Source: a virus
Direction: 5' to 3' (one strand)
Length of the DNA: 64,000 nucleotides
IMG/VR virus record: IMGVR_UViG_3300028393_000022
Shown here: positions 2,669 to 36,500 of the stretch, in pieces
How the letters are laid out: each line of letters opens with the position of its first letter
How positions within the stretch are numbered: the first letter of the stretch is position 1
Made by a program: the position numbers and the translations under genes
Notes under the pieces: generated by a model
Told to the model about the DNA's origin: nothing
What the model saw: only the letters and a program-made list of their open reading frames with translations
The model's database searches: none

Positions 2669-3400
2669 TTAAGGAATTTCTCTGTTAAACTTCCATCCGT
2701 TTAACAAAAATTCTGATATTTTATCAGCAGGAACCATTTTAATAGGTATTCCTAGTTCGTCATTATGCATTCGGCGGCGGCCTTTGTTTGCATTACCAAT
2801 CTTTAATTTAGAATCATCTGATTGGGGATGGCTATGTCCTAACTTTGATTTAGAAATATTTTCACAATGTTGTCTAGTGCGGGGAGGTTTTGGTTTACCT
2901 TTAAGAATTTTAGACATATTTGCACGATATTCTTCGCTAGGAGTACCAAACTTTCTACCACGGTTCGCTCCTATCTGAACGCCTGTTGTACCTTTATTCC
3001 ACGGAATTTTGCCTTTCTGATTTTCTGAACGCATTTTACAAAATTCATTAGACATTTTTCTTCCTCTATTTGCGTCTCCAATTTTTTGTTTAGTAGCATC
3101 GGATAAAATATGCCCAACAGGTAATCCACCACCGTCCCCTACTTCGGGTTTTAAATTTGCCCACTCATCACTATCTACAATATTCCATAGGTTACTATAG
3201 TATTTTCCCCAATATTCAACCATTGCCGGATATTGACATTCTTTGAGTATTTCTGTAGTATAGTGTTTACCGTGCTTCTTTAGATGTAGTTTCCAATACT
3301 TGCCAGATCCAGGATACTTATGCGGATCTTTTGCTACAGTTTTGCCAAGGTATTTAAGCCCAGTTATTGTGTGGGTCTTTACATAGAGATAAGTAATCAT
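2669..3400 (-). CDS. Free-standing GIY-YIG homing endonuclease with NUMOD3-like repeats
   Basis: N-terminal YLYVK...KYLGKT and YPGSG. Repeated KIGDANRG, KIGNANKG and PWNKG DNA-binding motifs. Antisense to its neighbours. Confidence 0.85.
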   Translation of the reverse strand: MITYLYVKTHTITGLKYLGKTVAKDPHKYPGSGKYWKLHLKKHGKHYTTEILKECQYPAMVEYWGKYYSNLWNIVDSDEWANLKPEVGDGGGLPVGHILSDATKQKIGDANRGRKMSNEFCKMRSENQKGKIPWNKGTTGVQIGANRGRKFGTPSEEYRANMSKILKGKPKPPRTRQHCENISKSKLGHSHPQSDDSKLKIGNANKGRRRMHNDELGIPIKMVPADKISEFLLNGWKFNREIP

Positions 3401-4167: not shown

Positions 4168-6840
4168 ATGAGCTATGTCGATGCCATGTGGGATCGCGAT
4201 AAGGACATTGTACATGTCGTTGAGCGAGATCCAAAGAAAGGCAGAATCTTTCAGGAGTTCCCTGCAAGATACACGTTTTATTACCCGGATCAACGGGGCA
4301 AATATAAATCAATCTATGGTGAAAACCTAAACAAAGTTGTCACAAGAAGTTTTAAAGACTTCCAGAAAGAACAACGAATCCACAGCAATCACAAGTTATA
4401 TGAATCCGATATTAACACGGTATTCAAGACGCTTGAGGAAAACTATCTCAATCACGAACCGCCAAAACTAAATGTAGCGTTTTTCGACATTGAGGTGGAC
4501 TTTGATCCAGAACGTGGCTATAGCACTCCCGAAGATGCTTTCATGCCAATTACCAGTATCGCAGTTCACCTACAATGGTTAGACACATTGGTTTGTTTTG
4601 CAGTACCGCCAAAGACATTGACCATGGCACAGGCACAAGAATTGATTAAGGATTTTCCCAATACAATACTGTTCGAAACTGAAGCAGAAATGTTAGATGC
4701 ATTTTTGGATATTATCCAAGATGCGGATATCCTAAGTGGATGGAATAGTGAAGGTTATGATATTCCATACACCGTTAATCGTGTCACTAAAGCACTAAGT
4801 AAAGAAGACACTCGAAGATTTTGTCTATGGGGTCAATTTCCTAAGAAGAGGGAGTACGAAAAGTATGGAAAAGCGGCTGTTACTTATGACCTGGTTGGTC
4901 GTGTTCATCTGGACAGTCTCGAGCTGTACCGCAAATATACATACGAAGAACGCCATACCTACAGGCTGGATGCCATTGGAGAAATGGAGGTAGGGGAGAC
5001 CAAGACGCAGTACGAAGGTACATTGGATCAACTTTACAATAATGATTTCCGTAAGTTTATCGAATACAACAGGCAGGATACTGCATTGTTGGACAAGCTA
5101 GATAAGAAATTAAAGTTCTTAGATCTAGCCAACACACTGGCACACGAATGTACTGTATTGCTACAAACTACAATGGGTGCTGTGGCTGTGACCGAACAGG
5201 CCATTGTAAATGAAGCACATCATCGTGGTTTAATTGTTCCCAATCGTGCCAAGCGTGATGAGGAAGCAAACAATCAAGCCGCAGGTGCTTATGTTGCATA
5301 TCCTAAAAAAGGTCTTCATGACTGGATCGGATCTATTGACATTAACTCACTATATCCAAGTGCAATTCGTGCCCTAAACATGGGTCCAGAGACTATTGTT
5401 GGACAGTTGAGACAGGACAGAACAGACCAATACATCCAAGAGCAGATGTTGGTGCATAAGAAGTCTTTTGCGGCAGCTTGGGAAGGCATATTTGGTAGCC
5501 TTGAGTACGAAGCAGTCATGCGGCGAGATAAAGCCTGGGAAATTACCATCGACTGGGAAAACGGTGAAAGTGATATTATGAGTGCAGCCGAATGTTATAG
5601 ACTAATATTCGAAAGCAATCAACCATGGATGCTCAGTGCCAATGGTACAATCTTTACCTACGAGCATGAAGGTATTATTCCGGGCTTGCTAAAGCGTTGG
5701 TATGCCGAACGTAAGGACATGCAGAAAAAACTAAAGGCCTGTATCGACGCTGGCAATAAGATTGAAGAAGAGTATTGGGACAAACGTCAGTTGGTTAAGA
5801 AAATTAACCTGAACAGTTTGTACGGTGCTATTCTTAACGCTGGTTGCCGATTCTTCGACAAACGTATCGGACAATCAACCACTCTAGTCGGTAGGCAAAT
5901 TGCCAAACACATGGCAGGCAAAGTAAATGAAATGATTACTGGCGAGTTTGATCACGTTGGTAAAAGTATTATCTACGGTGATACTGACTCATGTTATTTC
6001 TCTGCATACAATACACTAAAGACTGATATCCAAAAGAAATTGATTCCTTGGGACAAAGATGTTGTAGTGCAGTTGTATGATACCATTGCAGACAATGTCA
6101 ATGCAACTTTTCCAGACTTTATGTTAGATGCTTTTCACTGCCCTAAGAGTAGAGGTGAGGTTATTAAAGGTGGTCGTGAAATTGTTGCTATCAAAGGCCT
6201 GTTTATTACCAAGAAACGTTATGCTGTATTGTATTACGATAAAGATGGTAAGAGACAAGATGTAAACGGTAAGCCCGGTAAGATCAAGGCCATGGGATTA
6301 GATTTGAAACGCAGTGATACTCCAGAATTTATGCAAAAGTTTTTGGAAGAAGTATTAACCAAAGTTCTAAATAATGCTCAAGAAGAAGAAATTCTCGAAA
6401 TGATTACAGAATTTAGAACTGAGTTTAAGGCAAGACCTGGTTGGGAAAAAGGCAGTCCAAAACGTGCCAACAACATTGCTGAGTATCAAAAGAAAGAAGA
6501 AAAACAAGGCAAGGCCAATATGCCAGGACATGTCCGTGCCAGCATCAATTGGAATACGCTCAAACGTATGAATGGCGACAAGTACAGCATGGGCATTGTT
6601 GATGGTATGAAGGTCATTGTCTGTAAAGTCAAAGACAATCCATTAGGTTATACCAGTATTGCATATCCAGTAGATGAGATGCGATTGCCTAAATGGTTCC
6701 AAGATCTGCCATTCGATCATTCAGAAATGGAAACTACAATTATCAATAATAAACTTGATAACTTAATCGGTGTGTTGGAATGGGACTTAGAATCCACGAC
6801 ACAAAATAACACGTTCGGCAGTTTGTTCAGCTTTGACTAA
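4168..6840 (+). CDS. gp43: Family B DNA polymerase (T4 gp43-like)
   Basis: Exonuclease motifs FFDIEVD, GWNSEGYD and YNRQD. Polymerase motifs DINSLYPS, KINLNSLYG, YGDTDS and KKRY. Confidence 0.97.
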   Translation: MSYVDAMWDRDKDIVHVVERDPKKGRIFQEFPARYTFYYPDQRGKYKSIYGENLNKVVTRSFKDFQKEQRIHSNHKLYESDINTVFKTLEENYLNHEPPKLNVAFFDIEVDFDPERGYSTPEDAFMPITSIAVHLQWLDTLVCFAVPPKTLTMAQAQELIKDFPNTILFETEAEMLDAFLDIIQDADILSGWNSEGYDIPYTVNRVTKALSKEDTRRFCLWGQFPKKREYEKYGKAAVTYDLVGRVHLDSLELYRKYTYEERHTYRLDAIGEMEVGETKTQYEGTLDQLYNNDFRKFIEYNRQDTALLDKLDKKLKFLDLANTLAHECTVLLQTTMGAVAVTEQAIVNEAHHRGLIVPNRAKRDEEANNQAAGAYVAYPKKGLHDWIGSIDINSLYPSAIRALNMGPETIVGQLRQDRTDQYIQEQMLVHKKSFAAAWEGIFGSLEYEAVMRRDKAWEITIDWENGESDIMSAAECYRLIFESNQPWMLSANGTIFTYEHEGIIPGLLKRWYAERKDMQKKLKACIDAGNKIEEEYWDKRQLVKKINLNSLYGAILNAGCRFFDKRIGQSTTLVGRQIAKHMAGKVNEMITGEFDHVGKSIIYGDTDSCYFSAYNTLKTDIQKKLIPWDKDVVVQLYDTIADNVNATFPDFMLDAFHCPKSRGEVIKGGREIVAIKGLFITKKRYAVLYYDKDGKRQDVNGKPGKIKAMGLDLKRSDTPEFMQKFLEEVLTKVLNNAQEEEILEMITEFRTEFKARPGWEKGSPKRANNIAEYQKKEEKQGKANMPGHVRASINWNTLKRMNGDKYSMGIVDGMKVIVCKVKDNPLGYTSIAYPVDEMRLPKWFQDLPFDHSEMETTIINNKLDNLIGVLEWDLESTTQNNTFGSLFSFD

Positions 6841-6848
6841 AATATTTG

Positions 6849-6877
6849 TTGACAAACTACCTAAATCTAAATAAACT
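6849..6877 (+). promoter_or_regulatory. Sigma70-type promoter with an embedded TAAATA late element
   Basis: TTGACA-17bp-TAAACT; TAAATA at 6868-6873. Confidence 0.55.
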
Positions 6878-6895
6878 ATACAAAAGGATATTAAC

Positions 6896-7630
6896 ATGAA
6901 AGACATCTTACAAGACATCGTGAGTCATACTCACAACCTAGGCTTCCTGAACATTGTAAAAATTACAGGCGACGAAAGTTCTACAAAAATTGACTCAATG
7001 GCAGACGACAGAACTGTTGTTATGTTCGGAGAGGCAACTAATCCACAGCCAGAGATGGTCGGTGTGTTTGGCATGCCACAACTCAACAAATTGAAATACA
7101 ATTTGGAATGTCCTGAATACAAAGAGGACGCTAAGATTGAGTTGATGACTGCTGATCGCAACGGTGAAACTATTCCAGTTGGTCTTCACTTTGAAAATGC
7201 GGCAGGCGACTTTAAGAACGATTACCGTTTTATGAATAGTGAAATCATCAACGAAAAACTTAAGACTACCAAGTTCCGTGGTGTTAAGTGGGATGTTGAA
7301 GTTATTCCTACACAAAGTAGCGTACAGCGTTTTAGTTTCCAAGCGGCAGCTAACAGCGAACACGCAACTTTCCTTGCTAAGACAGACGGCGACAAGTTGA
7401 AATTTACTTTTGGTGATGCTAGCAGCCACGGTGGTGAGTTTATCTTTGCCACAGGTGTCACAGGCAACTTAAACAAAGGTTGGACTTGGCCAGTTGCTCC
7501 CATCTTGAGCATCTTGAAAATTGCAGATGTTAATAACACAACAATGAGCTTGTCTAATGAAGGTGCATTGCAAATTACATTAGACAGCGGCATTGCTACT
7601 TACAAGTACATCATTCCTGCACAGACATAA
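6896..7630 (+). CDS. Probable DNA sliding clamp (gp45/PCNA-like)
   Basis: 244 aa, acidic, alternating beta/alpha pattern, PCNA-like C-terminal YKYIIPA. Lies directly after the polymerase. Confidence 0.6.
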   Translation: MKDILQDIVSHTHNLGFLNIVKITGDESSTKIDSMADDRTVVMFGEATNPQPEMVGVFGMPQLNKLKYNLECPEYKEDAKIELMTADRNGETIPVGLHFENAAGDFKNDYRFMNSEIINEKLKTTKFRGVKWDVEVIPTQSSVQRFSFQAAANSEHATFLAKTDGDKLKFTFGDASSHGGEFIFATGVTGNLNKGWTWPVAPILSILKIADVNNTTMSLSNEGALQITLDSGIATYKYIIPAQT

Positions 7631-7632
7631 TA

Positions 7633-9264
7633 ATGACACAACAAGTTAACCTAACCCCACTACAGAAGGATTATGCTGTATATCTTCCGGCCATCAGCTC
7701 GTTCTACAGCACCTATATTGCTAAACAGCGTTTAGAAAAGTTCATTGCCGACGATCGTATTCCCGCTGGATTTGATCGCGGAATCGAAGGTATGAACTTT
7801 CTAAATCCTGAACAGGGATACTTTACCTACAAATATGGTTTGTATTCAGCAGGTCACGCACAGTTGGATCTACAAAAGAGTCTTGTACAAGAATCCATGA
7901 TCCAACAACGTGATCGCAACAACACAATGATTCTAGGTGACTCCGGTGGATACCAGATCGGTAAGGGTGTTCTTAAATTTGATTGGTTAGACTTTGAAGG
8001 CAAGGAAGCTACAAAGACTCGTCAAAAGATTCTAGAGTGGTTGGAAGTGACTGCCGACTGGTCTATGATGCTGGACGTTCCAACATGGGCTTGCGATCAT
8101 ATTCACAGTCCTAAAACAGGATTGAAAACATTTGAGGACTGCTTAGACAAGACACGTTTTAATAATGATTACTTCCTAATGAATCGTTTAGGACAGACCA
8201 AATGGCTCAACGTTCTACAAGGCGGTGATTGGGAGACTGCCGAGAAGTGGTATGACGGTGTAAAAGAATTTAGCGACCCTAAAGGCAAGTATGCAGGGCG
8301 CGAAGCAGAAGGTTGGGCCTTTGGTGGTGCCAACATGTGTAAAATGGATATTACTCTCAAGCGTTTAATGACATTGAGAGAAGATGGTTTGCTGAAGGGC
8401 AAAAACTGGATCCACTTCTTGGGTACAGCGCAACTTGACTGGAGTTGCTACTTAACATTAATCCAAAGACAAATCAGGAAACACATCAATGAAGAAATTA
8501 CCATATCTTTTGACTGCGCCTCACCGTTTATCGCAACCGCGCACGGACTTGTCTACACCAACGCACAGCACACGCCAAAAAGGTGGAGTGTTATTATGGA
8601 CAAAGCCCCAGACAACAAAGCACTGTCAGGAAGCGATATCCCGTTCCCCTTCGAATCGTCAATTGGTCGAAGACTGACAATGACAGACATTGCCTATTAT
8701 AATCTAGGCGAACGTAAAACTGATAAAGAATTAGGTAGTGTTAAGTTTGATCACTTAAATCCAGATCACTATCATGTTGTTCCTCGCTTAAACAAATTAG
8801 GTAAGATTCCAAACAAAACATCATGGGATAGTTTTGCCTATGCTCTAATGATGGGTCATAATGTTGAATGTCACATTGTTGCTGTACAACGTGCTCAACA
8901 ATTAATGGACATTGAAATTGCCAAAGTTAAAGGTCGACTATCTTGGAAGCATTGGAAGAAGGTCAAAGGTTCTGATATGAGTGATGAGTATAGTGATTGG
9001 GTTCCTCGAAATATTCTATACTTCAGTAGCCTAATTGAAGATCTGTTTAATACAAAGACTAAATCGGAAGCATTTGAATTAATCGAACAAGCTAGCCCAT
9101 TCTTGCGTAGTTTGGAAGGTGCTCGATTACAAGGTGGTCCAAAACAGAACACATTCGGTTCATTGTTTAGTTTTGAAGAAGTCACCAAGTCTGAAGAAGT
9201 CGATTTAGAAAATCCAGATGATGATCAATTACGAGCATTAGAAGAAGGCAGTTTAGGAGAATAA
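7633..9264 (+). CDS. dpdA: tRNA-guanine-transglycosylase-fold protein (DpdA-like DNA 7-deazaguanine insertase)
   Basis: TGT motifs GDSGGYQIG, MMLDVP, NVLQG, IHFLG and SFDCASP. Clustered with QueE and QueD-fold genes. Confidence 0.75.
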   Translation: MTQQVNLTPLQKDYAVYLPAISSFYSTYIAKQRLEKFIADDRIPAGFDRGIEGMNFLNPEQGYFTYKYGLYSAGHAQLDLQKSLVQESMIQQRDRNNTMILGDSGGYQIGKGVLKFDWLDFEGKEATKTRQKILEWLEVTADWSMMLDVPTWACDHIHSPKTGLKTFEDCLDKTRFNNDYFLMNRLGQTKWLNVLQGGDWETAEKWYDGVKEFSDPKGKYAGREAEGWAFGGANMCKMDITLKRLMTLREDGLLKGKNWIHFLGTAQLDWSCYLTLIQRQIRKHINEEITISFDCASPFIATAHGLVYTNAQHTPKRWSVIMDKAPDNKALSGSDIPFPFESSIGRRLTMTDIAYYNLGERKTDKELGSVKFDHLNPDHYHVVPRLNKLGKIPNKTSWDSFAYALMMGHNVECHIVAVQRAQQLMDIEIAKVKGRLSWKHWKKVKGSDMSDEYSDWVPRNILYFSSLIEDLFNTKTKSEAFELIEQASPFLRSLEGARLQGGPKQNTFGSLFSFEEVTKSEEVDLENPDDDQLRALEEGSLGE

Positions 9265-10289: not shown

Positions 10290-10462
10290 TTAATTCTAAA
10301 ATTACAAAAACAGCAGCTCAAACTTCTAACGAAGAACGACTGTTTAAATTGCTTGAGGGCATTGACTGGAAATTATGGGAAATCTATAATATGATGAAAG
10401 ACAATCTTCCAGAGAAGCCAAAGACCGTTAAAAAAACTACCGCAAAGAAGTCTGAAGAATGA
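10286..10462 (+). CDS. Small hypothetical protein
   Basis: ATGA overlaps on both sides; start reassigned to ATG 10286. Confidence 0.55.
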   Translation: MINSKITKTAAQTSNEERLFKLLEGIDWKLWEIYNMMKDNLPEKPKTVKKTTAKKSEE

Positions 10463-10851
10463 TCGATCTTAATATGATTTGGGTTACCTTTCGTAAGGAA
10501 GGCATCCATTGCTACCCAGCAGCGGCTACTGATCCTGCACTTGCAACAGGTGATGAGTACGATGTTAGTTTCCTTGGAACACCGCATCGTCATATTTTCC
10601 ATTTTAAAGTTTACATTCAGGTGTTTCACGACGATCGTGATATTGAATTTATCCAGTTTAAGCGTTGGCTTGAAAAGTGCTACAGCGACGGCACCTTAGA
10701 GCTCAATCACAAATCCTGTGAAATGATTAGTCATGATCTCCATGATATTATTTCGGCAAGATATCCAAGTCGAGAGATTTGGATTGATGTTAGTGAAGAC
10801 GGCGAGAATGGCTGCTTCATTAAATTTCCTTCAACAAACCCTTTAATTTAA
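10459..10851 (+). CDS. T-fold QueD/PTPS paralog (DpdL-like)
   Basis: His-rich LGTPHRHIF (LxxxHRHxF), SCEM and VSEDGENG, consistent with a QueD-fold protein. Confidence 0.65.
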   Translation: MIDLNMIWVTFRKEGIHCYPAAATDPALATGDEYDVSFLGTPHRHIFHFKVYIQVFHDDRDIEFIQFKRWLEKCYSDGTLELNHKSCEMISHDLHDIISARYPSREIWIDVSEDGENGCFIKFPSTNPLI

Positions 10852-11211: not shown

Positions 11212-12027
11212 TTATGCTCGGCAATCTTTTACCTTACACAGTTTCTTAAACTCCCAGAAGCCCCTTAAATGGGGCTTCGTTATATCAAGTGATGTTCCTA
11301 TTCCCTGTGTTTTACAAAACTCAATTCGATTGCCTTTTACTATAATAATATTGCCAGTCGGCGATGTTGCTTCCCATACATAGGCATTATAGTTTTGTTC
11401 GGCAAATGAATCTCGTTTAGGGCGTCTACGATTAGATTCTATAGATTTAATTTTTCCTTCTTTTAATCCTGCCTGCCTAACAGACTCTACCCAATCTTTT
11501 CCAAAGTTATTAATAAGTAAATGCCGTATAGTATATTGTGCATGGCCGGTTTTTTCGGCAGTAGTTTTAACAGTCTTATATATTTCAAACAATGATTTAA
11601 TAGTAGCAACATAAGTTTGGTGATCATCATAACCAATTTTCTGTGCTATAGAATCTAAATGCTTGGCTTTAACTTTGGGACAACTCATTGAGTTTGGCAG
11701 ACCAATAGTTAGTTCCCTAATAGTCTGATATTGTCGGGCTGTTAGATTCCGTTGAGTTCCAGGTTTTGCCATCTTAAAAGCATCAACGGCTCTAATCATT
11801 TTAGACCTAAATACTCCAGAAGTCATCCTTACTAACAGTAAGTGGCATATATAATGTTCTCGAGCAGTTAGTGAAACAAGATTATTTTGAGCATTAGATC
11901 CGCCTAAACATTTTGGAAGTATATGATGTTTTTCAAAATATCCAGAAGGAGCATTACTAATACGATGATTGATAATGTTGTAATACCAACGATGATACTT
12001 ATTGACGATAAAGTTGTTATGACCCAT
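11212..12027 (-). CDS. Free-standing HNH homing endonuclease
   Basis: EKHHILPKCLGGSN...NLVSLTAREHYICHLLL. TAAATA at 12033-12038 on the minus strand upstream. Confidence 0.88.
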   Translation of the reverse strand: MGHNNFIVNKYHRWYYNIINHRISNAPSGYFEKHHILPKCLGGSNAQNNLVSLTAREHYICHLLLVRMTSGVFRSKMIRAVDAFKMAKPGTQRNLTARQYQTIRELTIGLPNSMSCPKVKAKHLDSIAQKIGYDDHQTYVATIKSLFEIYKTVKTTAEKTGHAQYTIRHLLINNFGKDWVESVRQAGLKEGKIKSIESNRRRPKRDSFAEQNYNAYVWEATSPTGNIIIVKGNRIEFCKTQGIGTSLDITKPHLRGFWEFKKLCKVKDCRA

Positions 12028-12105: not shown

Positions 12106-13203
12106 ATGACTGTATATATTGTAGATTTAGAAAAATTAGAAACTCGCTATACTAAACAATGGGCCAGTCATGTGCCTAAGTTAATAACACAACACGGGCA
12201 CGAAGTGGTAATCATTAGTGGTCCAGATGATATTCCATCTATTCCAACTCCTGGAATGTTTTTAAACTTTTCTGCTACCAATGTATACAAAGCAGTTCAA
12301 GTAGAAAAAATCAGCAGATTATTTTGCGAAGGTAAAATTAAAGACGGTGATTATTTTCTCTTTACCGATGCCTGGCATCCCGGTGTTATCAATCTAAAAT
12401 ACATGATTGACTTGTTAGGTATTAACGCAAAAATTGGAGGTCTTTGGCACGCGGGATCTTACGATAAATGGGACGGATTAGGACGCTTAGTTGGTAATAA
12501 ACCTTGGGTTAGAAATGCTGAAAAAAGTTTCTTCCATGCGTTTGATTACAACTACTTTGCCACAGACTTTCACATCAAAATGTTCTATACAAATTTACTA
12601 AATGATTATCCTACAGAGAATCCTTGGTATAGCGAACATTTAGAAGAAATTCTAAACGGTGAAGAGCCAAAGATTGTACGCACAGGTTGGCCTATGGAAT
12701 ATATGTCTAACACATTAACTCCATACAAGGGAATGCCTAAACGTGATCTTATCTTGTTCCCGCATCGTATTGCACCCGAAAAGCAGGTCGAAATTTTCCG
12801 TGATTTAGCCACACAGCTGCCGCAATACGAATTTGTTGTTTGTCAGGATCAACAATTGGATAAACATGAATATCACAAGTTGTTAGGTCGTGCTAAGATT
12901 GTTTTCAGTGCCAATTTACAGGAAACACTTGGTATCAGTTGTTATGAAGGTGCATTGGTAGATGCCATTCCTATGGTACCAGATCGATTATCATACAGTG
13001 AAATGTATTACGACGGATTTAAATATCCTAGCGAATGGACTGACAGTTATGCAGCGTATGAGGCATTTCGTCCAGCACTGTGTCATAAAATTATACAGTA
13101 TATGACCAATCATGAACAATTTGTATATCAGGTTCGTAAGCAGGCAACTAATTTAACAGAAAAGTTTTTTAGTGCAGATAAGTTATTGGAGAATATTAAA
13201 TGA
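12106..13203 (+). CDS. GT-B fold glycosyltransferase (GT4-like), probably acting on DNA
   Basis: FPHRIAPEKQ and QETLGISCYEG (E-x7-E donor-binding motif), PDRLSYSE. Confidence 0.8.
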   Translation: MTVYIVDLEKLETRYTKQWASHVPKLITQHGHEVVIISGPDDIPSIPTPGMFLNFSATNVYKAVQVEKISRLFCEGKIKDGDYFLFTDAWHPGVINLKYMIDLLGINAKIGGLWHAGSYDKWDGLGRLVGNKPWVRNAEKSFFHAFDYNYFATDFHIKMFYTNLLNDYPTENPWYSEHLEEILNGEEPKIVRTGWPMEYMSNTLTPYKGMPKRDLILFPHRIAPEKQVEIFRDLATQLPQYEFVVCQDQQLDKHEYHKLLGRAKIVFSANLQETLGISCYEGALVDAIPMVPDRLSYSEMYYDGFKYPSEWTDSYAAYEAFRPALCHKIIQYMTNHEQFVYQVRKQATNLTEKFFSADKLLENIK

Positions 13204-13658
13204 AATGGTTTTTAAATTTTCTAGAACGTGTTGGTCGTAAACGTATTGTAATGGATAGACAAGAAAATGAACCTTACCTCGAACGCTACTATATTTTTCT
13301 TAAGGATCGAAAGCATTTCCCCTTTAATGTGTTCATTCACAAGTTTCTTAAGTCAGACCCCGATGATGTGCATGATCATCCATGGCCTTACGCTACGGTA
13401 ATCTTAAAAGGTGGATACTACGAATGGAATCCAATCTTTGATGATGCAGGAAAGAAGATTGCAGAAACATGTACATGGCGCGGACCAGGTCACTTCCGTA
13501 TTTGTAGCGCCACTAGCTATCATCGTATTGAGCTCGATCCCACAATAACAGCCTGGACCATGTTTATGCCGGGTCCTCAGAAACGTGAATGGGGATTCCT
13601 TGTCAATAACAAATGGGTACATAACGACACCTACTTAACAGAAAAAGCAAAAAAATGA
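13200..13658 (+). CDS. Cupin-fold protein
   Basis: HDHPW...GGYYE and SYHRIEL metal-binding cupin pattern. Confidence 0.65.
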   Translation: MKWFLNFLERVGRKRIVMDRQENEPYLERYYIFLKDRKHFPFNVFIHKFLKSDPDDVHDHPWPYATVILKGGYYEWNPIFDDAGKKIAETCTWRGPGHFRICSATSYHRIELDPTITAWTMFMPGPQKREWGFLVNNKWVHNDTYLTEKAKK

Positions 13659-13930
13659 ATAGTAAAGAAAAAGAAATCCTTGATATTACACAAGAAGAAT
13701 GTGCAGAGGTAATTGTTGCTATTAGTAAAATTAGTCGCTTTGGCCTGGATAATGTTAAGCCTAGCAAACCTAAAACCAATAGAGAACATCTAGCAGAAGA
13801 ATTAGGAGATCTACAGGCAATGATTGACCTATGTATTAAATTTAACCTAGTAGATAGCGAGCAAGTTAGTATTGCCGCAGATAACAAGATTGCTAAACTA
13901 AAGCAATGGTCAAGTATCTTTACTGATTAA
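13655..13930 (+). CDS. MazG-like nucleotide pyrophosphohydrolase
   Basis: EECAE...EELGDL acidic helical motifs. Confidence 0.75.
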   Translation: MNSKEKEILDITQEECAEVIVAISKISRFGLDNVKPSKPKTNREHLAEELGDLQAMIDLCIKFNLVDSEQVSIAADNKIAKLKQWSSIFTD

Positions 13931-14774
13931 ATTTAGTAATCAGTTGATCCGATAAGTCCATACAAGCCATCATTTTACATGGGGCAGGAACTTTAGGTAA
14001 ATCAAGAGAACCGTCCCATATATTACCTAATTGAAGATTATTACAACTACTACCGCTTACCCAACCTCGATGAGAAATGACTAATTTCTCAATTCCTACG
14101 TTGCACAGCATTCCTGTATAAGATGGATTTGTTTGAATCTTTTCTTCAAATCGTTCTGCAAAAGTAGTTTCTTGATGATGTTGATTTTCTTGTACAAGTT
14201 CTTCTCCGCGCATAATTCTTAGTTGCTGATCAGTATAATTATACATGCCCATAGATTGTTCAGCTTCGCGGTATAGTACATTCTTTGAAACAACAATTTC
14301 AAATTCTGTTTCTATGTCTAAGGCACGTTTTAAATCTTCACTAAAATAATCAGGTCGCATAGGTACCATAACATTAACATGTTTATTAGATTTACCAAAT
14401 GCTTGTAATATGAAACGTATGAGATTAGGATTTTGCCAATAGTGATATGTTAAATTTAATGAATCAATATGTGGCTCAATTGCCCACCAGTCTAACCAAA
14501 GTTTGCCACCGTTGGTTGTTAGATTAATATTGCCGCCACGTTCTTTACATAACTTTAACATCATGGGAAAGTCAAACATATCTAAAGGTTCGCCACCGTC
14601 GAATGTCCAATCAATTTTTCTACCTAGAGAATCGTAATGGTCTATAAGTTGGGTAGTGACTTGAACATAATCTAATATACCTTTAGGTAGTTCTCCTCCC
14701 CAAAACTTAGTTGGGCAATAACTACAACCTGCTGTACAATAATCATGCAACATCCAATTAATCTGTGTTCTCAT
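13920..14774 (-). CDS. Radical SAM protein with a C-terminal Cys cluster (SPASM/twitch-like)
   Basis: CTAGCSYC, GGEPL, TTNG, C-terminal C...C...C-x4-C. Start reassigned to ATG 14774. Confidence 0.85.
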   Translation of the reverse strand: MRTQINWMLHDYCTAGCSYCPTKFWGGELPKGILDYVQVTTQLIDHYDSLGRKIDWTFDGGEPLDMFDFPMMLKLCKERGGNINLTTNGGKLWLDWWAIEPHIDSLNLTYHYWQNPNLIRFILQAFGKSNKHVNVMVPMRPDYFSEDLKRALDIETEFEIVVSKNVLYREAEQSMGMYNYTDQQLRIMRGEELVQENQHHQETTFAERFEEKIQTNPSYTGMLCNVGIEKLVISHRGWVSGSSCNNLQLGNIWDGSLDLPKVPAPCKMMACMDLSDQLITKFNQ

Positions 14775-14849
14775 ATTTTTTACCTTTTTGCTTGACAAAT
14801 CTAAATAAAAGTGTACAATTACTTATCATACCAATAAAGGTCATTATTA

Positions 14850-15713
14850 ATGAGCAAAATTAAAGTATCCGAATTATTTTACTCCATTCAAGGAGAAGGA
14901 CGTTTTATGGGCGTCCCTAGTGTGTTTCTAAGAACATACGGCTGCAACTTTACCTGTCGGGGGTTTGGTATGCCGCGAGGTGAACTAAGCACAGAAGCAG
15001 ACAAAGTTGCAGTGATGCATGCCATGCATCCATTTAAAGACTATAAAGAACTACCACTAGTAGGCACAGGTTGCGACAGTTATGCAAGCTGGCATCCAGA
15101 CTTTAAAGAATTAAGTCCGATGGTAGAAGTCGACGGACTTGCAAAGAACATTGTAGGCATATTGCCATTTGGTGAATGGCGTGATGAACATTTGGTTATT
15201 ACAGGTGGAGAGCCCTTGTTAGGTTGGCAACGTGCATATCCAGAATTGCTAGATCAACCTTGTATGCAGAACTTAAAAGAAATTACTTTTGAGACCAACG
15301 GTACAATGCGACTGACCAAAGACTTTAGACAATATCTACTTAATTGGACATTGGGCAGTAAGTCCAGAGGTAAGGATGCACTTACATTCTCTATCAGTGC
15401 TAAACTGCCGTCTAGTGGTGAGCCGTGGGAGGATGCCATTAAGCCAGAAGTGGTATTAGCATATGAGGATGTTGGACACGCATACCTTAAATTTGTTGTA
15501 GCAACAGAACAAGACATTGAAGATGCATTAAAGGCAATGCAACAATATCGCGATGCTGGATTTAAAGGCAATGTATATCTAATGCCAGTTGGCGGTGTTG
15601 AAAGTGTATACAGCCTAAATAATAAAACAGTTGCATTGGCTGCAATGAAACACGGTCTCCGTTATAGTGATCGCTTGCAGGTGCCGTTGTTTAAGAATGA
15701 GTGGGGTACTTAA
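14850..15713 (+). CDS. queE: 7-carboxy-7-deazaguanine synthase QueE
   Basis: ELFYSIQGEG, VFLRTYGCNFTC...CDS, ITGGEPLL, ETNGT, YLMP, DRLQV. TTGACA-16bp-TACAAT at 14792-14819 upstream. Confidence 0.88.
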   Translation: MSKIKVSELFYSIQGEGRFMGVPSVFLRTYGCNFTCRGFGMPRGELSTEADKVAVMHAMHPFKDYKELPLVGTGCDSYASWHPDFKELSPMVEVDGLAKNIVGILPFGEWRDEHLVITGGEPLLGWQRAYPELLDQPCMQNLKEITFETNGTMRLTKDFRQYLLNWTLGSKSRGKDALTFSISAKLPSSGEPWEDAIKPEVVLAYEDVGHAYLKFVVATEQDIEDALKAMQQYRDAGFKGNVYLMPVGGVESVYSLNNKTVALAAMKHGLRYSDRLQVPLFKNEWGT

Positions 15714-18629: not shown

Positions 18630-19712
18630 ATGTCAAAAGAGATGTCAGCAAATCGTACAGTTAGCCCAAACGAAGCTAAAGCCGCAATCCGCAAATGTAT
18701 GAAAAAACAACGCCCTGTTTTTATGTGGGGCCCTCCCGGTATTGGTAAATCCGATATTGTTAAACAGCTCGGTGCTGAACAAGATCGTAATGTGATTGAT
18801 GTTCGATTGAGTCTTTGGGAACCTACTGATATCAAAGGTATTCCATTTTACAATGCCAATCTGGGTACAATGAGCTGGGCTCCTCCGCTCGAGTTTCCTC
18901 AAGATCCAGAAGATACTTCCATCCTGTTCTTAGATGAATTGAACAGTGCGGCTCCTGCAACACAGGCAGCGGCTTATCAGTTGATCCTAAACCGTCGTGT
19001 TGGTACATATGTTTTGCCAAAAGGTGTAACAATTGTTGCCGCTGGTAACCGTGAAGCAGACAAAGGCGTTACTTATCGTATGCCTGCTCCGTTGGCTAAC
19101 CGTTTCCTGCACGTTGAACTCCGTAGCGATTTTGAAGACTGGCATACTTGGGCTGTAAGCAATCGCATCCATGAACAGGTTGTTGGTTATTTGGGTTTTG
19201 CCAAGCAAGACTTGTATGACTTTGATCCAAAGAGCACCAGCAAGGCATTTGCTACACCACGTAGCTGGAGTTTTGTTAGTGAATTGGTGGAAGAAGATGA
19301 CGTCTCCGATAGCACTTTGACTGATTTGATTGCAGGTGCAGTCGGTGAAGGTTTGGCAGTTAAGTTTATGGCACACCGCAAGGTAGCAAAACAAATGCCT
19401 AAGCCAGAAGACATTTTGTCTGGCAAAGTTAAGAAGACTGAGATTAAAGAAATCTCCGCTATGTATTCTTTGACAATTAGCCTGTGCTACGAGCTCCAAG
19501 AAGCTGATCGCAAGAAGGCTAAGGATTGGGATATTATGGCAGACAACTTCTTTGGCTACATGATGGATAATTTCCCAACCGAATTGGTTGTCATGGGTGC
19601 TAAGGTTGCGTTAACTAACTATCAATTGCCGTTTGATGCTAGCAAGTTGAAGAACTTTGACAAGTTCCACGACAAATACGGTAAGTACATTATCCAAGCA
19701 ATGGAAGGTTAA
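18630..19712 (+). CDS. MoxR-like AAA+ ATPase
   Basis: Walker A GPPGIGKS, Walker B LFLDE, AAGN, LANRF and TPRSW. Confidence 0.9.
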   Translation: MSKEMSANRTVSPNEAKAAIRKCMKKQRPVFMWGPPGIGKSDIVKQLGAEQDRNVIDVRLSLWEPTDIKGIPFYNANLGTMSWAPPLEFPQDPEDTSILFLDELNSAAPATQAAAYQLILNRRVGTYVLPKGVTIVAAGNREADKGVTYRMPAPLANRFLHVELRSDFEDWHTWAVSNRIHEQVVGYLGFAKQDLYDFDPKSTSKAFATPRSWSFVSELVEEDDVSDSTLTDLIAGAVGEGLAVKFMAHRKVAKQMPKPEDILSGKVKKTEIKEISAMYSLTISLCYELQEADRKKAKDWDIMADNFFGYMMDNFPTELVVMGAKVALTNYQLPFDASKLKNFDKFHDKYGKYIIQAMEG

Positions 19713-19716
19713 AATT

Positions 19717-19738
19717 GGACCCTACGGGGTCCTTTTTT
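19717..19738 (+). terminator. Rho-independent terminator
   Basis: GGACCC-TACG-GGGTCC followed by T6. Confidence 0.9.
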
Positions 19739-19740
19739 AC

Positions 19741-19769
19741 TTGCTCTTTGAACTAAATGAGTGTATAAT
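19741..19769 (+). promoter_or_regulatory. Sigma70-type promoter
   Basis: TTGCTC-17bp-TATAAT. Confidence 0.65.
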
Positions 19770-19793
19770 TAATTATTGTAATAAGGAGTTTAT

Positions 19794-21053
19794 ATGTCTA
19801 GTGTAATGAAAGCAGAAAAAACAAAAAAGCAAGATTGGGTCGGTAAGGAATTTACTGCCGCTGAGAAAGCTAAAATTCTTGACAAGCTGATTACAGCCCG
19901 TGTGGGTCTGTTGCTTCGTCATCCATTCTTTGGCAACTTGGCAACCCGTATGAAGCTGATTGATGCATCTGACTGGTGCCATACACTGGCAACAGATGGT
20001 CGCAATTTTTACTTCAATTATGGTTTTGTAAATAAGCTCACTCCTAAAGAAGCAGAGTTTGGTTTTGCACACGAAGTCTTACATAATGTGTTTGATCACA
20101 TGGGACGCCGTGATGGACGAGATCCTCAGTTGTCAAACATTGCCGCTGACTATGCTACTAACCAAATCCTTAAAGATGAACGAATTGGTACGGTGCCAAG
20201 TTTTATTAAAATCTTTCAGGATGACAAATATCGTGGCAAGAGCTATGAAGAAATTTATAATGACCTTTACGAGAAAGCCGAAAAGATCGATCTCAGTGAT
20301 CTAGGTGAATTGTTGGACGAACATTTAGACGGTGAAGGCGATGGAGATAGTGACGGAGAAGACGGTGATGAAAAAGAAGGCAAAGGTCGTCCTAAACTGA
20401 CTGCTGAAGAAAAGAAGCAGATCCGTGATGAGATCAAAGAAGCTATGGTGGCGGCCGCTCAGGCAGCAGGTGCAGGCAAAGTGCCAGCAGGCGTCCAACG
20501 TATGATCAAAGACTTCACTGAGCCTAAAATGGATTGGCGTCAGCTGTTGCGTATGAATATACAAAGTATTCTTAAGAGCAACTTCAGCTTCAGCCGCCCT
20601 AACCGCAAGTCACAGCACTGCGGCGCTATCTTGCCAGGCATGATGAACGAAGAAACTATTGATGTATCTGTGGCAATTGACATGTCAGGTTCTATTAGCG
20701 ATGCAATGGCTAAAGACTTTATCAGTGAAGTTAAAGGCATCATGGACGAGTACCAGGACTTTAAATTGGACTTGTTCTGCTTTGATACAGAAGTATATAA
20801 CTATGCTCAATTTACAGCTGATAATGCTGACGAGATTATGAGCTATGAATGTAAGGGCGGTGGCGGTACTGACTTTGATGCTTGCTATGAATTTATGAAG
20901 GCAGAAGGTATTGAGCCAAAACGTTTCATTATGTTTACAGACGGTTATCCTTGCGGTAGTTGGGGCGACGAAGATTACTGCGAAAGCCTGTTTGTAATTC
21001 ACGGTAACGAATCTATCGTTTCTCCGTTCGGTCAGACAGCCTATTATAAATAA
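19794..21053 (+). CDS. HExxH metallopeptidase-like plus VWA domain protein (AAA+ partner)
   Basis: ATDG, AHEVLH, acidic linker, MIDAS DMSGS, GGGTDF and FTDG. Confidence 0.85.
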   Translation: MSSVMKAEKTKKQDWVGKEFTAAEKAKILDKLITARVGLLLRHPFFGNLATRMKLIDASDWCHTLATDGRNFYFNYGFVNKLTPKEAEFGFAHEVLHNVFDHMGRRDGRDPQLSNIAADYATNQILKDERIGTVPSFIKIFQDDKYRGKSYEEIYNDLYEKAEKIDLSDLGELLDEHLDGEGDGDSDGEDGDEKEGKGRPKLTAEEKKQIRDEIKEAMVAAAQAAGAGKVPAGVQRMIKDFTEPKMDWRQLLRMNIQSILKSNFSFSRPNRKSQHCGAILPGMMNEETIDVSVAIDMSGSISDAMAKDFISEVKGIMDEYQDFKLDLFCFDTEVYNYAQFTADNADEIMSYECKGGGGTDFDACYEFMKAEGIEPKRFIMFTDGYPCGSWGDEDYCESLFVIHGNESIVSPFGQTAYYK

Positions 21054-30511: not shown

Positions 30512-33500
30512 TTAATATCCTTGTAAAGGTTCTCCGTTTTCGTCTGTTAGCGCATTGCTTTCTTCAGTTAGCATGTTATCTCCACCATAGAAATATATAT
30601 TAGGTAAGTCAGCTGTTCTAAAACGTAAGAATGTAGCCTGTGTTCCTGTACTTGATAACAATGAAGTCGAAGCAGTATCTTCCCAGAACTCGCCTTGTCT
30701 TTGTACTATTGTAATCCTTGTACCTGCTTTTATTTCTTCAGCAATATTTAATGTAATTTTTGTCGGTTCAATAAAAGTTAATGGCCATGCTATAGTAATT
30801 GCATCTGCAAAGCCAACACCCCAACCATTAAATAGATCATTATGTCCTGAATAAACAACTATATATCGGTGTCCGCTAGCATCCTGCATAATCCATCCCG
30901 GTTGTATCTTCATTGTTTCTGTAGTTTCATGAAACACCCAACCTGATCCATACTGTATATGGCCACCATTTACCATTTCAGTAACTAGTACAGTCTTTGG
31001 CATATTAATACTAAATTCTGGAGGATATACTATTGTACTTTCTGGAGAATTATAATAAGATATAGATTTATCATGTACTTCTAAAGAAGTCTTTCTCAGT
31101 CTGCGTCCTCCATAATAAACTTCAACTTGATCAACTGCATTAGCTAAGTTGGATAGTATAATTCCTGCTCCAACGCTAGTGGTTGTATTAACTGAAAAAG
31201 TAGCGGTGTTGCCTATTGTACTAATAATATATGTAGTAGCAGTCGACGTAGGAATGTGTTGTACTAAATTACGATACACTGTAGGAATAGATTGCCTAAC
31301 ACTTTGATCGATAACCTTTGTACCAATATCCGAGAACAATGCAGGACCTGTGCCCAATGTGCTTCTTCTCAACTGACTTAACACATTTCCATCTTTTTCC
31401 AAATATTCGATACGCTCGCCATCGATATAAACAACACCTGGTAAGTTTAATCCAGGATTAGGTTCTAGTAAGTGGTCTCCATCTTCAACAAATACTCTAT
31501 CACTATCATATGTCAATGGCTCTGTTAGAGCTGTGCTAAAATATTTTGATATGCGGTGAAAATCTTGTCTATTGAACATATCATTGAACAGTCTAAATCC
31601 TAAAATTTTATCATCAAAGGTCGGAGGATTTACTGTAACTATCACTATGTCGTCGGTTAATCCCACGTCAATAAATTCTGACAATTCAATAGTCTTATAA
31701 TCATCGAGTAACATGTAATCATAACCACCAATTAATGGTTTGTTGTTAACAGTTACCCATGTATAGCTTTCATTGATTGCTGGAAGTGTTAATGTAAATT
31801 TTCTAGAGTAATTTCCTTTGAATCGTTCTGTTCTAATCAGCATATTATCGTGATTGGTAAAAGTGGTTACCTTAATAGTAGCATCAGAGATAGGCGATGA
31901 AAAATACAATGTATCGCCTGCAACCGTGTATTCGTAATCCACCATTGGAGTGATTGCAATAGCATCGCCAGTTCTGATTGTTGGTACTAAGATTGTTATA
32001 GTTTCATTAATTACATTAACTGCGAAATCATATCCCGGACGCAATTCTTTTCCATTTAGGTATACTTTGACATTGTCTAAACTATATGTGCTCGGACGAG
32101 AGTTTTTAGGATCAATTGCAAATGTTGTAATTCCAGATCGAATTTTATAGTAAGTCGCCCACGGAGGAAGCATTCTGTATCTTCCTGTTGAAGTTATTTT
32201 CTCAACAATTATTTCTTCACTTAGTGGTTCAATAATAGTTGGAGGCATCGCTAGTATCATACTAGTGATCGAAGAAGAAGAAGAAGAAACTGTATTAAAT
32301 TGTTCATATACTCTGTTAAAAACAGGATATACCGCATCAAAGAACCATGCTTCGAATGTATAAGATCCTGAATTTAATCCATAAATTTTTACAGAAGCTC
32401 GATTGTTAACTAGGCTAACTGGTTCCAAAGTATATCCATAATTATATCCTGGAAGGAGTAGAGGAACCGGATGTCCGTTTGCAAGAACATAAACACTCTT
32501 GACATCGTCTATCATCAATAAACTAGATACCATTGCAGTGCCTGTACCTTCAATTGTAGAAATGTCAACTGCTATAAAACTACTATCCATTTTAACATCA
32601 GATCCCACAGTGATGAAAGTATATCCAATTTTTGTTATAGCCAGTTGTGCAGGAACAATAATTTCATTTCCAAAAATAGCATACTGAGTAGATGAACTAA
32701 ATGCACCTTCGTTGTCCACTCTGGTATAAGTTATTCCATTTGCATACACTAAAAATCCAGCAGGAGTTGCTGGAACATAAGTTAGTTTGGCTCTAGTAGG
32801 AACATTAGTAATTGCAGTAAACACACCAGATTGTACCAACGGAGAAGAAGGAGTTCCCACAGTATAGACATTAATTCCTAGAGAGTCTCTTACATAGCCT
32901 GGAACACATTCTTCTGGTGCGTGACTATCTATTTCATTTAAGAAATTATTACCATCAATTCTAATATCTTCTGCTTTGTATCCATTAAAATTATCTTGTA
33001 TATAGGAACCACTAATTAAAGAATCTAAATTACTATATTCAGTATTATAACTATAAAATTCTATTTCAGTAAAATCATATAATTTAACATCTACAGTCCC
33101 AGATAAAATTGCACCGGTTGCATTTTGTACAGATACAATTGATCTATTATAACCGTCAACTGAATTTGTTACACTATACCACACTGTATCAGTACTTGTT
33201 GACAATACTTCAGTAGAGTTTAGATACACAGAAGCACGGGCGGTCTGCTCAACAGTAGCAAGGATATTTACAACCAAATGTGTACTGCTATCAAAAGTAG
33301 TAACTGTGTGATCAATTAATTTATTTTTGCTATTAACATAGCTCACATTTTCACTTAATAGATCAAAATATGGAAAACGGCCACTGAGTGGCATGAGCGG
33401 GAGAACAGTTGCCGTGCTGCTTAAAGTAAATTGAGATTTAAATTGAATTTGATTAGTTGTAGCTGCTTCAACATATGCAAATTGATTATATCCAGGGTCC

Positions 33501-36500
33501 AAACTACCAGCAATGCTACCATACGACTTAAGGGGGCCGCTCAGGTACATATTAGGAGGAATACTATATCCCATTCCCGGGTTGGTAACTTGTATAATTG
33601 TGGCAGTATTTCCATCAAATAGCGGAACAGCAGTAGCTTGAATGCCGCCAGGAAAATCTGGAGGGGCAATTATTACTGAAACTGAAGGAATATCTGTGTA
33701 GGTATTAACTACAGGTCTGCTTCCTCTAACAAAGTATATAGTTTCAATTCCATATCCGGCAAGACTGTTTACGCCGTAAATTTTAACTCGATCTCCTTTT
33801 GAAATTGCAGTACGGAAAGGATCTTTAGTTTCTATAGTTATAGTAGAACCTTTGGCGGTACCAGTAGACCAAGCATAAAAAATTTGTGTATCGACTCGAT
33901 CTAATGTACTTATATACACGATACCATCTTTGCGTTCTGGAAGTGGACGGTTCACACCTGTAACTACAGTTCCAGGTTTAAAAATTTGATTATATGTTGA
34001 GGTACCAGCAAATCCAATTGATTGTCCTGGAAAAATTCCGTCAATAGATGCTACAGAAAAAGCCTGGGTGGGGAAATATAAATCTTGGAGTAATTGTGTT
34101 TTAGTATAAGAACTAAGAGTATCTCCCCAGGGCGCAGAGTCAAACCCTGTGCCAGTGCTATCCCAGTTAGGTGTTTGTTCAAACTTTAATCCTTGGATTT
34201 GTGTTCCGGAATATTCAATGCCGTCCATTAGCAACGGTAATTCTTTACCTGGCATCAAATCTGTGGGATTATACATTTTGTTAATTCTATCTACAGCATT
34301 ATATAGGTCAATATTTTTGTTATAGGTAATTTTAAAAACTTGTTCAAAATTAGGAATCTGATTTAAAAATACAAATTTGGCATAATGTCTAATATTATCG
34401 GGCAAGTTATTAGGCGTAATAGTATTAAAGTATTTGTATCGGTGATCGATCATTCTTTCACCTTCCCAGGAATTTCTAGGGAATGCTGCGGGAATATTGA
34501 TACCATCTTTTTCAACTTTTATCTGATAATATTCAATTGTATAATCAGCACTATATACCAATTTTCCATCTACTAAAGGTGTAATTGTTTTTTTATCCGG
34601 GCTAGCAAGCCAAGTTAATGTAAATTTGTTGGTTGTTCCGTCGCATAAAAATTCATCAGTCACTGTTAGATCGATTAAGTCACCCGATGAAGAAGTTCTA
34701 TCAAACTTAATACCAATAAGATTTTTTCTTGTATTAATGTTATCCATTATTACAGATACCCTTGCTACATCAATGACAGAACCACCGCCTACAATAGTTG
34801 CAAGAGGAGTAGCAGTGTACCCGCTTCCTGGGTTGGTTACAATTACTTTATAAACTTTTCCATTTCTAATGTACGCTTCAGCTTCGGCACCTGATCCAGA
34901 ATCTCCAGGAGCCGTGGTAATTACGACCGTGGGTCTTTCACTATATCCCGATCCGGTGTATCCTACTTCAATTGAACCAACAAATAATTTATAATTATCG
35001 TTCCAATTTTTCCATGGATAATTCATTAATATAGGATCGCCAACATTGACAGTTGTTAAAGAATTAGTCAAAGTATTAACATATGCAGGTAAATCAAAAT
35101 CTGTAATGTTAAGGTTAAAGCCTTCAGATGTTTGACCGTCAACATGACTATATATTGAAGTATAACTACGTATCTTGGTATGATAAGGTTTTACTTCTTT
35201 TATATATTCTTCAAAGTAAGATTCATTGTTTAATTTATAAACAGACGGCTGATCCAGTGATCCTATATTATTTGACACATTAATAAAAGAAGTTTTAAAT
35301 GCCCAGTCTAATAATTTTTGTTCCGTTAGTGCAAATTTAACCGCAGCAAAAAAGAATAAGTTCCAATTAACTTTTAAATCATTAATAAAAATATTATTTT
35401 TTAATGCTAAAAGAATATAGTACAGTTCTTGATCAGGAATTTGATTATACGGAGTTTCTTCAATTGATGCTGCATCATATAGATATTTTCCCTTTGTATA
35501 ATCCCACAACGTGTCAAGCAGTTGAATTGTTCCTAGTTCTCTATATATTATGTCGTATAATGGAATATAATTTCCTAATCCATTAACTTTCTTTAATATA
35601 GCATACCGACCATCGCCTATATTTTTAACTTTGACATACTCGCCGTCGGTAATTGACGTTAACGAACCCAATTCAGATAGATTAGAAATAGTATAGGTCA
35701 AACTTTTATACGAATCAAATTCAGAACTTACCCAATCAACTGCTGTCCAAAATTTTGTAGTGTCGTATTTTTGTGTTTGAGTTTTTATCCAAGTACGAAA
35801 CACATAATCAAAAGTGTGTTTAGACCACTTACCGTTAATATCAGAATTAGTTTGAACAATAACAGTATGAGGCCGTACTGTTGTTTGAACATTAATATCA
35901 GTATATCCACTACCTGGATTAATGATTGTTACAGAAATAACTCGACCTTGCGTATCAATAGTTGTTGTTATCTCAGCAGGCGTTAAAGATGAAGAAATAA
36001 TATTAATTTTAGGAGCAATACTATAACCAAAACCAGGATTTGTTATGATTACATTTTTTACTTTTCCATTTTCTGCATAACATTCTAATTCTGCTTGAAC
36101 ATATCTAACTGTATAGATTTCGTTTAATGCATCTAAGTCTTCGACTATTTGATCATATTCGTATGAATATAGTGCAGGAAGTTCTTCTTTTTTATTAAGA
36201 TTTTCAAAAGAATAATTTCCCACTATTCTATTTTTTACAAATACTGAATTTATAAAAGAAATTAAATTTCGTAATGCAGCAAGTCTGTCTTTAAAGAATG
36301 TTTGCTGAGGACGGATTCCGATTCCGTATCTATTTCTATATGTAAGATTTGTACTAGGAACAACATTACCCAAAGAATCATGTCCTAATAAACTGTCAAA
36401 TAATTTTTTCTCAAGTAATGTATTAGGAACATTCGTGTGATCTCCTTCGTTTAATAATAACCATTCAGTATGTTTGGGAATTATTGAATTTGCATCAGTC

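Follow-up and report, generated by a model that had tools for sequence, protein, structure and literature searches.

The replicative DNA polymerase of a jumbo phage and a DpdA-like transglycosylase encoded two genes further on carry the same short peptide of the clamp-docking type, and the gene between them encodes a protein with the predicted fold of a sliding clamp. The three genes lie in a stretch of 64,000 nucleotides (hereafter the window) of the IMG/VR virus record IMGVR_UViG_3300028393_000022, a 119-kb record estimated to hold ~33% of the phage genome. Judging from sequence and model comparisons across related phages, the transglycosylase probably docks on the phage clamp via this peptide and acts on just-replicated, clamp-bearing DNA. 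An earlier note made from the letters of the window had suggested such a coupling, together with the view that it had not been described for DpdA; our literature search likewise found no description of a deazaguanine transglycosylase (DpdA) coupled to a sliding clamp or to the replisome. The features discussed below are collected in Table 1.

The peptide shared by polymerase and transglycosylase

The family B polymerase (PolB) is identified by Pfam (DNA_pol_B 5.5e-39, DNA_pol_B_exo1 5.4e-18) and by PHROGs (phrog_262 DNA polymerase, 2e-198). Its thumb aligns with residues 731-850 of RB69 gp43, and also with T4 gp43, and ~55 residues extend beyond the thumb alignment, compared with 53 in RB69. 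The C-terminus of the 890-residue protein, QNNTFGSLFSFD, sits where T4-type gp43 proteins have their clamp-binding tails. In the relatives PA5oct and L090, the PolB gene is interrupted by an intein or homing endonuclease.

Translation of positions 6742-6843, the 3′ end of the polymerase gene, yields ...STTQNNTFGSLFSFD*, and translation of positions 9085-9240, in the tail of the 543-residue transglycosylase, yields ...GGPKQNTFGSLFSFEEVTKSEEVDLENPDDDQLRAL.... As the earlier note had seen, nine residues, NTFGSLFSF, are identical between the two. In the transglycosylase, the peptide QNTFGSLFSFE takes up residues 505-515, 28 residues ahead of the acidic C-terminus. At the DNA level, the FGSLFSF core is encoded as TTCGGCAGTTTGTTCAGCTTT by one of the genes and as TTCGGTTCATTGTTTAGTTTT by its partner, with four of the seven codons differing synonymously. 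The identity is thus held at the protein level, again as the note had argued, without a recent DNA copy, and an origin of the identical peptide by recent gene conversion is ruled out by the differing codons.

The folded catalytic body of the transglycosylase extends from residue 1 to ~496 and is followed by a disordered linker; the peptide falls within the only stretch of the model with a low predicted local distance difference test score (pLDDT), which is the setting expected of a short linear motif. The canonical consensus of PCNA-interacting peptides (PIP boxes) is Q-x-x-[LIM]-x-x-[FY]-[FY]. Compared with it, Q-N-T-F-G-S-L-F agrees at Q1 and F8, and has F at position 4 and L at position 7. 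The peptide is closer to the T4-type L-D-F-L-F pattern than to the PIP consensus, and RB32 gp43, which ends in ASLDFLFG, has the same Φ-x-x-L-F pattern as the two peptides described here.

The motif is also specific. A six-frame scan of the window and of the whole 119-kb record found it confined to the PolB and transglycosylase genes. In a 93%-complete relative of 331.6 kb, PolB and the transglycosylase are the only ones among 448 open reading frames (ORFs) of at least 70 residues to have the strict motif in their tails. Three family members without the motif stand in non-replicative settings, where neither PolB nor a clamp is encoded in the vicinity: one comes after QueD and QueC and ahead of a 518-residue gene, and two lie in integrase-bearing islands beside genes of 512-573 residues. 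These motif-less TGT-like members (L184 6920-10977, L185 6283-9335 and L186 5587-8430) are found in bacterial or integrative-element contexts. Their neighbouring genes of 512-573 residues have no PADLOC match, and members and neighbours may form an undescribed cellular module for deazaguanine modification of DNA.

The earlier note had made its proposal depend on the peptide being conserved in homologues of the transglycosylase, and this is what was found in 157 related loci that hold both genes. Here, the polymerase end follows the pattern N-T-F-x-x-L-F-x-F-E/D, and the transglycosylase follows N-x-F-x-x-L-F-D/E-hydrophobic-E/D, or more generally N-x-F-x-x-L-F-x-hydrophobic-D/E. The transglycosylase motif is internal, at least 15 residues from the end, in 138 of these loci and lies no more than three residues from the end in 18. 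Among the nearer half of 109 full-length representatives, 44% of the tails contain the strict motif, which turns up in 1.7% of tails after shuffling and in 0.5% of windows from the body. A positional entropy profile of the tails was not used as evidence, since the regular expression that anchors them fixes the L-F columns and the argument would be circular.

Over the 157 loci, the polymerase and transglycosylase peptides share between two and nine of 10 aligned residues, mostly four to seven; the 9/10 identity is the extreme of this family-wide range and is reached in this genome only. Distant clades alter both peptides together. In Vibrio phage 2.275.O, for instance, the polymerase has NNTDLFDW* and the transglycosylase NNNDLFGW*, and the corresponding pairs are DDLFDF* and NNLFDFS* in L086, STFFEF* and LSLFEF* in L087, LFDSLFG* and SVFDAMFE in L088, and HFDSLFGW* and SFNSLFDV in PA5oct, whose transglycosylase is EST35_0316 (longer form of the peptide, NSFNSLFDV). 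The co-variation across related phages that the note had put forward as a check is therefore present at the level of clades: own-genome pairs outscore cross-genome pairs in a permutation test (p 4e-4 with 13 clusters at 55% identity; p <5e-5 with 23 clusters at 70%), although shared ancestry inflates this test.

The clamp and the transglycosylase

The product of the gene at 6896-7630 was modelled with AlphaFold2 (AF2) from 30 homologues (pLDDT 92.8, predicted template modelling score 0.88). The top Foldseek matches of the model are all PCNA (E 9e-12, template modelling score 0.69), and VIA-align superposes it on PCNA from end to end (Z 18.7, root-mean-square deviation (rmsd) 3.2 Å, 225 of 244 residues). 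The clamp that the earlier note had placed here as probable is thus borne out by a predicted PCNA fold, and the two-domain protomer would be expected to assemble into a closed trimer. Sequence comparison gives no hint of this: the protein has no Pfam match, the sequence libraries yield phrog_12062 alone, annotated as ‘unknown function’, and its profile found no clamp among PDB sequences.

Clamp homologues comprise 174 ORFs across ~180 loci. The order polymerase, clamp, transglycosylase, which the note had given for the window and which proved correct, is kept in nearly all of these loci, with the clamp gene standing between both others in more than 150. A match to an RFC-like clamp loader (PF13177) was obtained in each of four large relatives searched.

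Two of the clamp homologues already carry a label in GenBank. EST35_0314 of the cultured relative PA5oct (L001 4912-5658) was seen in virions and is called ‘structural protein (ESI-MS/MS)’, while its counterpart in Phosso (L207 2455-3195) is called ‘DNA polymerase III sliding clamp beta’; given the PCNA-like fold, both labels are misleading. In Phosso, this clamp homologue (hhalign probability 100%) adjoins PolB, which ends in TTFNDLFTF, elsewhere in the genome, and the transglycosylase, located away from both, ends in EGLF. A Phosso ‘virion structural protein’ encoded upstream of the transglycosylase homologue was considered as a clamp and rejected (hhalign probability 0.1%).

For the 543-residue protein, the AF2 model (pLDDT 90.3, from 76 homologues) identifies the fold of tRNA guanine transglycosylase (TGT), a (β/α)8 barrel, over the catalytic body. 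The top 50 Foldseek matches are all TGT (E 1.7e-6, probability 1.0), and VIA-align places 306 residues, within model residues 12-463, on TGT (Z 18.8, rmsd 4.6 Å). A comparison of its profile with E. coli Tgt by hhalign (probability 89.7%, E 1.9e-6) pairs GDSGGYQ with TDSGGFQ, LDVPT with FDECT, VLQGG with IIQGS and SFDCASPF with MFDCVMPT. All 76 family members compared keep D103, S104, G106 and D294, whose equivalents in TGT are the general-base Asp, substrate-binding residues and the nucleophile Asp. The family extends to 870 representatives at 50% identity (E up to 0.001).

Searches of Pfam, PHROGs, NCBIfam, PADLOC and PDB sequences, both with the single sequence and with a 76-sequence profile, found no match to this protein. 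The link to TGT accordingly stands on the fold comparison and the hhalign alignment. Beyond the peptide lies the acidic helix DLENPDDDQLRALEE, which is also conserved; it occurs in 96 of 175 homologues in the loci compared and is unique within this genome.

Base synthesis, proposed mechanism and rival explanations

The genes downstream of the transglycosylase point to synthesis of a 7-deazaguanine base. The window contains a QueE-like gene and a DpdL-like QueD paralogue, the latter with the LxxxHRHxF signature of DpdL (PMC10516641). Similar genes neighbour the transglycosylase homologues elsewhere, namely QueE in PA5oct, QueF, QueC and FolE in Vibrio phage 2.275.O, and FolE, QueC and a QueE-like gene in metagenomic relatives. 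FolE and QueD are present in all five large relatives (65-93% complete), in which no convincing QueC was found and a six-frame search with PF01702 revealed no canonical TGT; the transglycosylase homologue is hence their only candidate for the insertion step. A set that lacks QueC makes a base of the dCDG or dDG type the likely scaffold. In line with such a pathway, PA5oct DNA resists several restriction enzymes, from which the authors inferred a modified G (PMC12191111), and Iyer et al. listed a deazaguanine synthesis and incorporation system for this phage (PMC7824862). We regard the 543-residue protein as the candidate DpdA of this phage group, which would swap DNA guanine for a 7-deazaguanine base.

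We consider the following sequence of events the most likely. The base would be made by FolE, QueD, QueE and DpdL, and the transglycosylase would insert its peptide into the pocket where the clamp receives its clients. Kept on new duplex DNA by clamps that were loaded in the course of replication, the enzyme could slide along and exchange bases in a processive manner. One clamp trimer might carry polymerase and transglycosylase simultaneously, in the manner of a ‘tool belt’. More tentatively, tethering to the clamp could render the exchange both processive and replication-coupled and so explain a large or full replacement of G, with the clamp taking the place of DpdB and the acidic helix (DLENPDDDxLRxLEE) making a further contact with the replisome; this extended version we would entertain without calling it probable.

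Several observations weigh against a clamp-docked enzyme that inserts a base into DNA. The PIP-like position 7 of the peptide is Leu, with no aromatic residue there. Two proteins encoded in the window whose T4 or eukaryotic counterparts are clamp clients, a FEN/RNase H-like exonuclease and a gp55-like late sigma factor, do not have the motif. Apart from the ancestry effect on the permutation test, changes at the variable positions of one peptide are not matched residue by residue in the other among close relatives, where the polymerase tail NTFGKLFSFD is found alongside three transglycosylase variants; much of the signal thus reflects a common core and not strict co-variation. As to the enzyme, none of the 76 family members has a Pfam TGT match. 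Bacterial TGT has a CxCxxC...H zinc site, and a sequence check of the 543-residue protein found no CxCxxC motif. FolE, QueD, QueC and a clamp loader were not found in the 119-kb record, from which nothing is concluded, given the fraction of the genome that it represents. Finally, expression in E. coli of DpdA3 and DpdL from other phages gave no activity (PMC10516641).

It could be argued that the similarity of the two peptides is functionless, either because the tail was captured from the polymerase gene long ago or because low-complexity sequences came to look alike by chance. The peptides are indeed short, and the 9/10 identity is peculiar to this genome. However, the core has been kept in a variable, disordered tail while the catalytic bodies diverged to ~30% identity, the strict motif is found in 44% of the nearer representatives as opposed to 1.7% of shuffled tails, and loss of the motif coincides exactly with loss of the replication context. 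Together with the four of seven core codons that differ, this renders a functionless peptide highly improbable. A different objection accepts that the protein is clamp-docked and disputes that it inserts 7-deazaguanine: it could be a replication-coupled glycosylase or repair enzyme, for which UNG2, a PCNA-bound repair enzyme, offers a comparison, or a tRNA transglycosylase with a moonlighting tail. Its lack of the canonical zinc motif, its position below all TGT and DpdA sequence models and the frequency of tRNAs in jumbo phages speak for such a role. Yet both catalytic Asp motifs of transglycosylases are retained, many lineages keep the gene in tight linkage with FolE, QueC, QueE and DpdL, relatives encoding base synthesis have no other TGT-superfamily gene, and a clamp tether would make no sense for a tRNA enzyme. 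We therefore deem this explanation unlikely.

About equally unlikely, in our view, is that the shared peptide binds some other common partner, such as the clamp loader, the single-strand binding protein, the helicase or a packaging or localisation factor, and thereby co-recruits both enzymes. That the PA5oct clamp homologue was detected in virions by mass spectrometry shows that unexpected roles are possible, and the second conserved acidic element of the transglycosylase might serve another contact. Against this stand the Φ-x-x-L-F pattern that the motif shares with the T4-type tail ASLDFLFG, the position of the clamp gene between both client genes in more than 150 loci, and the T4/RB69 type of the polymerase, whose C-terminal tail is an established clamp ligand (PMC2988020).

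Table 1. Coordinates of the polymerase, clamp and transglycosylase genes, their sequence elements and further genes of interest in the window
Feature	Position	Strand	Basis or remark
Family B replicative DNA polymerase, T4/RB69 gp43 type, 890 residues	4168..6840	+	Pfam, PHROG, thumb alignment
Extreme C-terminal peptide of PolB, QNNTFGSLFSFD	6802..6837	+	Positioned like the T4-type gp43 tails that bind the clamp
PCNA-fold sliding clamp protomer, 244 residues, two domains	6896..7630	+	Predicted structure
TGT-fold, DpdA-like transglycosylase, 543 residues	7633..9264	+	Predicted fold, hhalign
DSGGYQ, residues 103-108	7939..7956	+	Corresponds to TGT DSGGFQ with catalytic Asp
FDCASPF, residues 292-298, with D294	8506..8526	+	Corresponds to TGT nucleophile Asp in MFDCVMPT
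Disordered linker holding the peptide	9127..9192	+	Residues 499-520; only segment of the model with pLDDT <50
Clamp-docking-type peptide QNTFGSLFSFE, PIP-box-like QxxFxxLF	9145..9177	+	Residues 505-515
Acidic helix DLENPDDDQLRALEE, second conserved element	9202..9246	+	Helix at residues 531-542 in the model
DpdL-like QueD paralogue (proposed 7-carboxy-7-deazaguanine (CDG) decarboxylase), LGTPHRHIF	10459..10851	+	31% identity, E 7e-14, to phiST DpdL CGPG_00067
QueE-like radical SAM protein (7-carboxy-7-deazaguanine synthase type)	14850..15713	+	phrog_2076 ‘QueE-like’ 4.7e-51; partial NCBIfam QueE 6.7e-15
gp55-like late sigma factor, 321 residues	55643-56608		phrog_12791 7.6e-84

Known systems and neighbouring genes

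Docking of the transglycosylase on the clamp would have its closest precedent in T4 and RB69. The clamp-binding tails of T4 gp43, gp55 and gp33 are highly similar and interchangeable, one of them being functional when internal, and RB69 gp45 has been crystallised with the last 11 residues of the polymerase (PMC2988020). As with the gp45 clients, unrelated proteins of one phage here bear similar hydrophobic-acidic peptides on flexible linkers, and the polymerase is of the same type, with a tail resembling that of RB32 gp43. In contrast, the second client would be a predicted enzyme of DNA base exchange, a type not represented among the clients known for gp45; the gp55-like sigma factor is devoid of the peptide; and in structure searches the clamp comes out nearer to PCNA than to anything named gp45. 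The sigma factor ends in ...DDSEETNL, without the hydrophobic clamp-binding tail of T4 gp55.

A further parallel exists in eukaryotes, where DNMT1 and UNG2, which modify DNA or remove bases from it, are tethered to PCNA via PIP-box-type motifs (QxxLxxFF type). There, a short clamp-binding peptide couples a DNA enzyme to replication, as QNTFGSLF would do here. The enzymes are not homologous, and they differ in chemistry, organism and purpose, which in our case would be anti-restriction hypermodification of the viral genome. If clamp docking holds true, an enzyme of DNA hypermodification would join the clients of sliding clamps, paralleling PCNA-bound DNMT1 and UNG2.

Among the phage systems with DpdA1 to DpdA4, the QueC-free DpdA3/DpdL pathway of Cellulophaga phage phiST (PMC10516641) resembles the present one in its TGT-superfamily fold and in the linkage of FolE, QueD, QueE and DpdL without QueC. 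However, the DpdA3 of phiST, with 259 residues, lacks both the DSGG[FY]Q motif and a tail of this kind. It matches the transglycosylase family weakly and in part (hhalign probability 84%, E 7.6e-6, 83 columns only; Foldseek E 1.2e-3 to M4SLA5), and membership of DpdA3 is not claimed. The nearest named viral structures are a ‘tRNA guanine transglycosylase’ of Achromobacter phage Motura (E 2.7e-11) and a protein of Vibrio phage nt-1 (E 1.3e-9). The term ‘DpdA-like’ of the earlier note is hence justified by fold, catalytic motifs and gene context, and not as membership of a named DpdA subfamily by sequence. A listing from 2019 includes Vibrio phage 2.275.O with its synthesis genes, without counting the homologue as DpdA.

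DpdA3-type phages replace all G, with an efficiency left unexplained (PMC10516641); a processivity tether could explain it. Up to now, free DpdA enzymes have been described as carrying out 7-deazaguanine modification in phages after replication, and the 2023 DpdA paper mentions no link to a clamp (PMC10516641). Should the proposed docking be real, the peptide would supply a concrete mechanism for replication-coupled, processive base exchange. The bacterial Dpd restriction-modification system, in which DpdA acts with the ATPase DpdB (PMC10164549), likewise has a TGT-fold inserter of 7-deazaguanine that needs a DNA-handling partner, whereas the candidate partner here is the sliding clamp instead of DpdB. 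PADLOC Dpd models match neither the 543-residue protein nor its bacterial relatives, and one may speculate that the clamp functionally replaces DpdB. DpdA-like enzymes and clamp-client peptides are both known separately, and their combination does not amount to a new kind of system. Nonetheless, the analysis proposes a function for two unannotated families, that is, the transglycosylase family of ~870 clusters (at 50% identity) and phrog_12062, so far labelled ‘unknown’ or ‘structural protein’. The escape of phage DNA from restriction and from nucleases that sense modification bears, in addition, on host range.

Within the modification cluster, the interval from the DpdL-like to the QueE-like gene holds three more genes (12106-13658 and 13920-14798), which may further decorate the base: a 365-residue gene, a cupin resembling cysteine dioxygenase (phrog_4786) and, on the minus strand, a second radical SAM gene with weak matches to viperin and QueE. 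On the opposite strand, the cluster also holds an HNH homing endonuclease (phrog_655, 3e-32; 11212-12027, minus strand), and a NUMOD3 endonuclease is found at 2669-3400 (minus strand). In distant relatives, a phosphoribosyltransferase (PF00156) is encoded near the transglycosylase and FolE (L091 7981-8430, L092 2846-3301 and L093 2313-2837) and might turn the free deazaguanine base into a nucleotide, which would constitute an alternative or extra route.

Elsewhere in the window (18630-21053), a DUF2201 metallopeptidase/VWA protein is encoded after a MoxR-type AAA+ ATPase (phrog_1297); the two form a conserved pair and are no clamp loader. Positions 30512-44485 (minus strand) are taken up by a single ORF of 4657 residues, presumably a giant virion or tail-fibre protein, which is flanked on the same strand by ORFs of 1181, 774 and 1180 residues.

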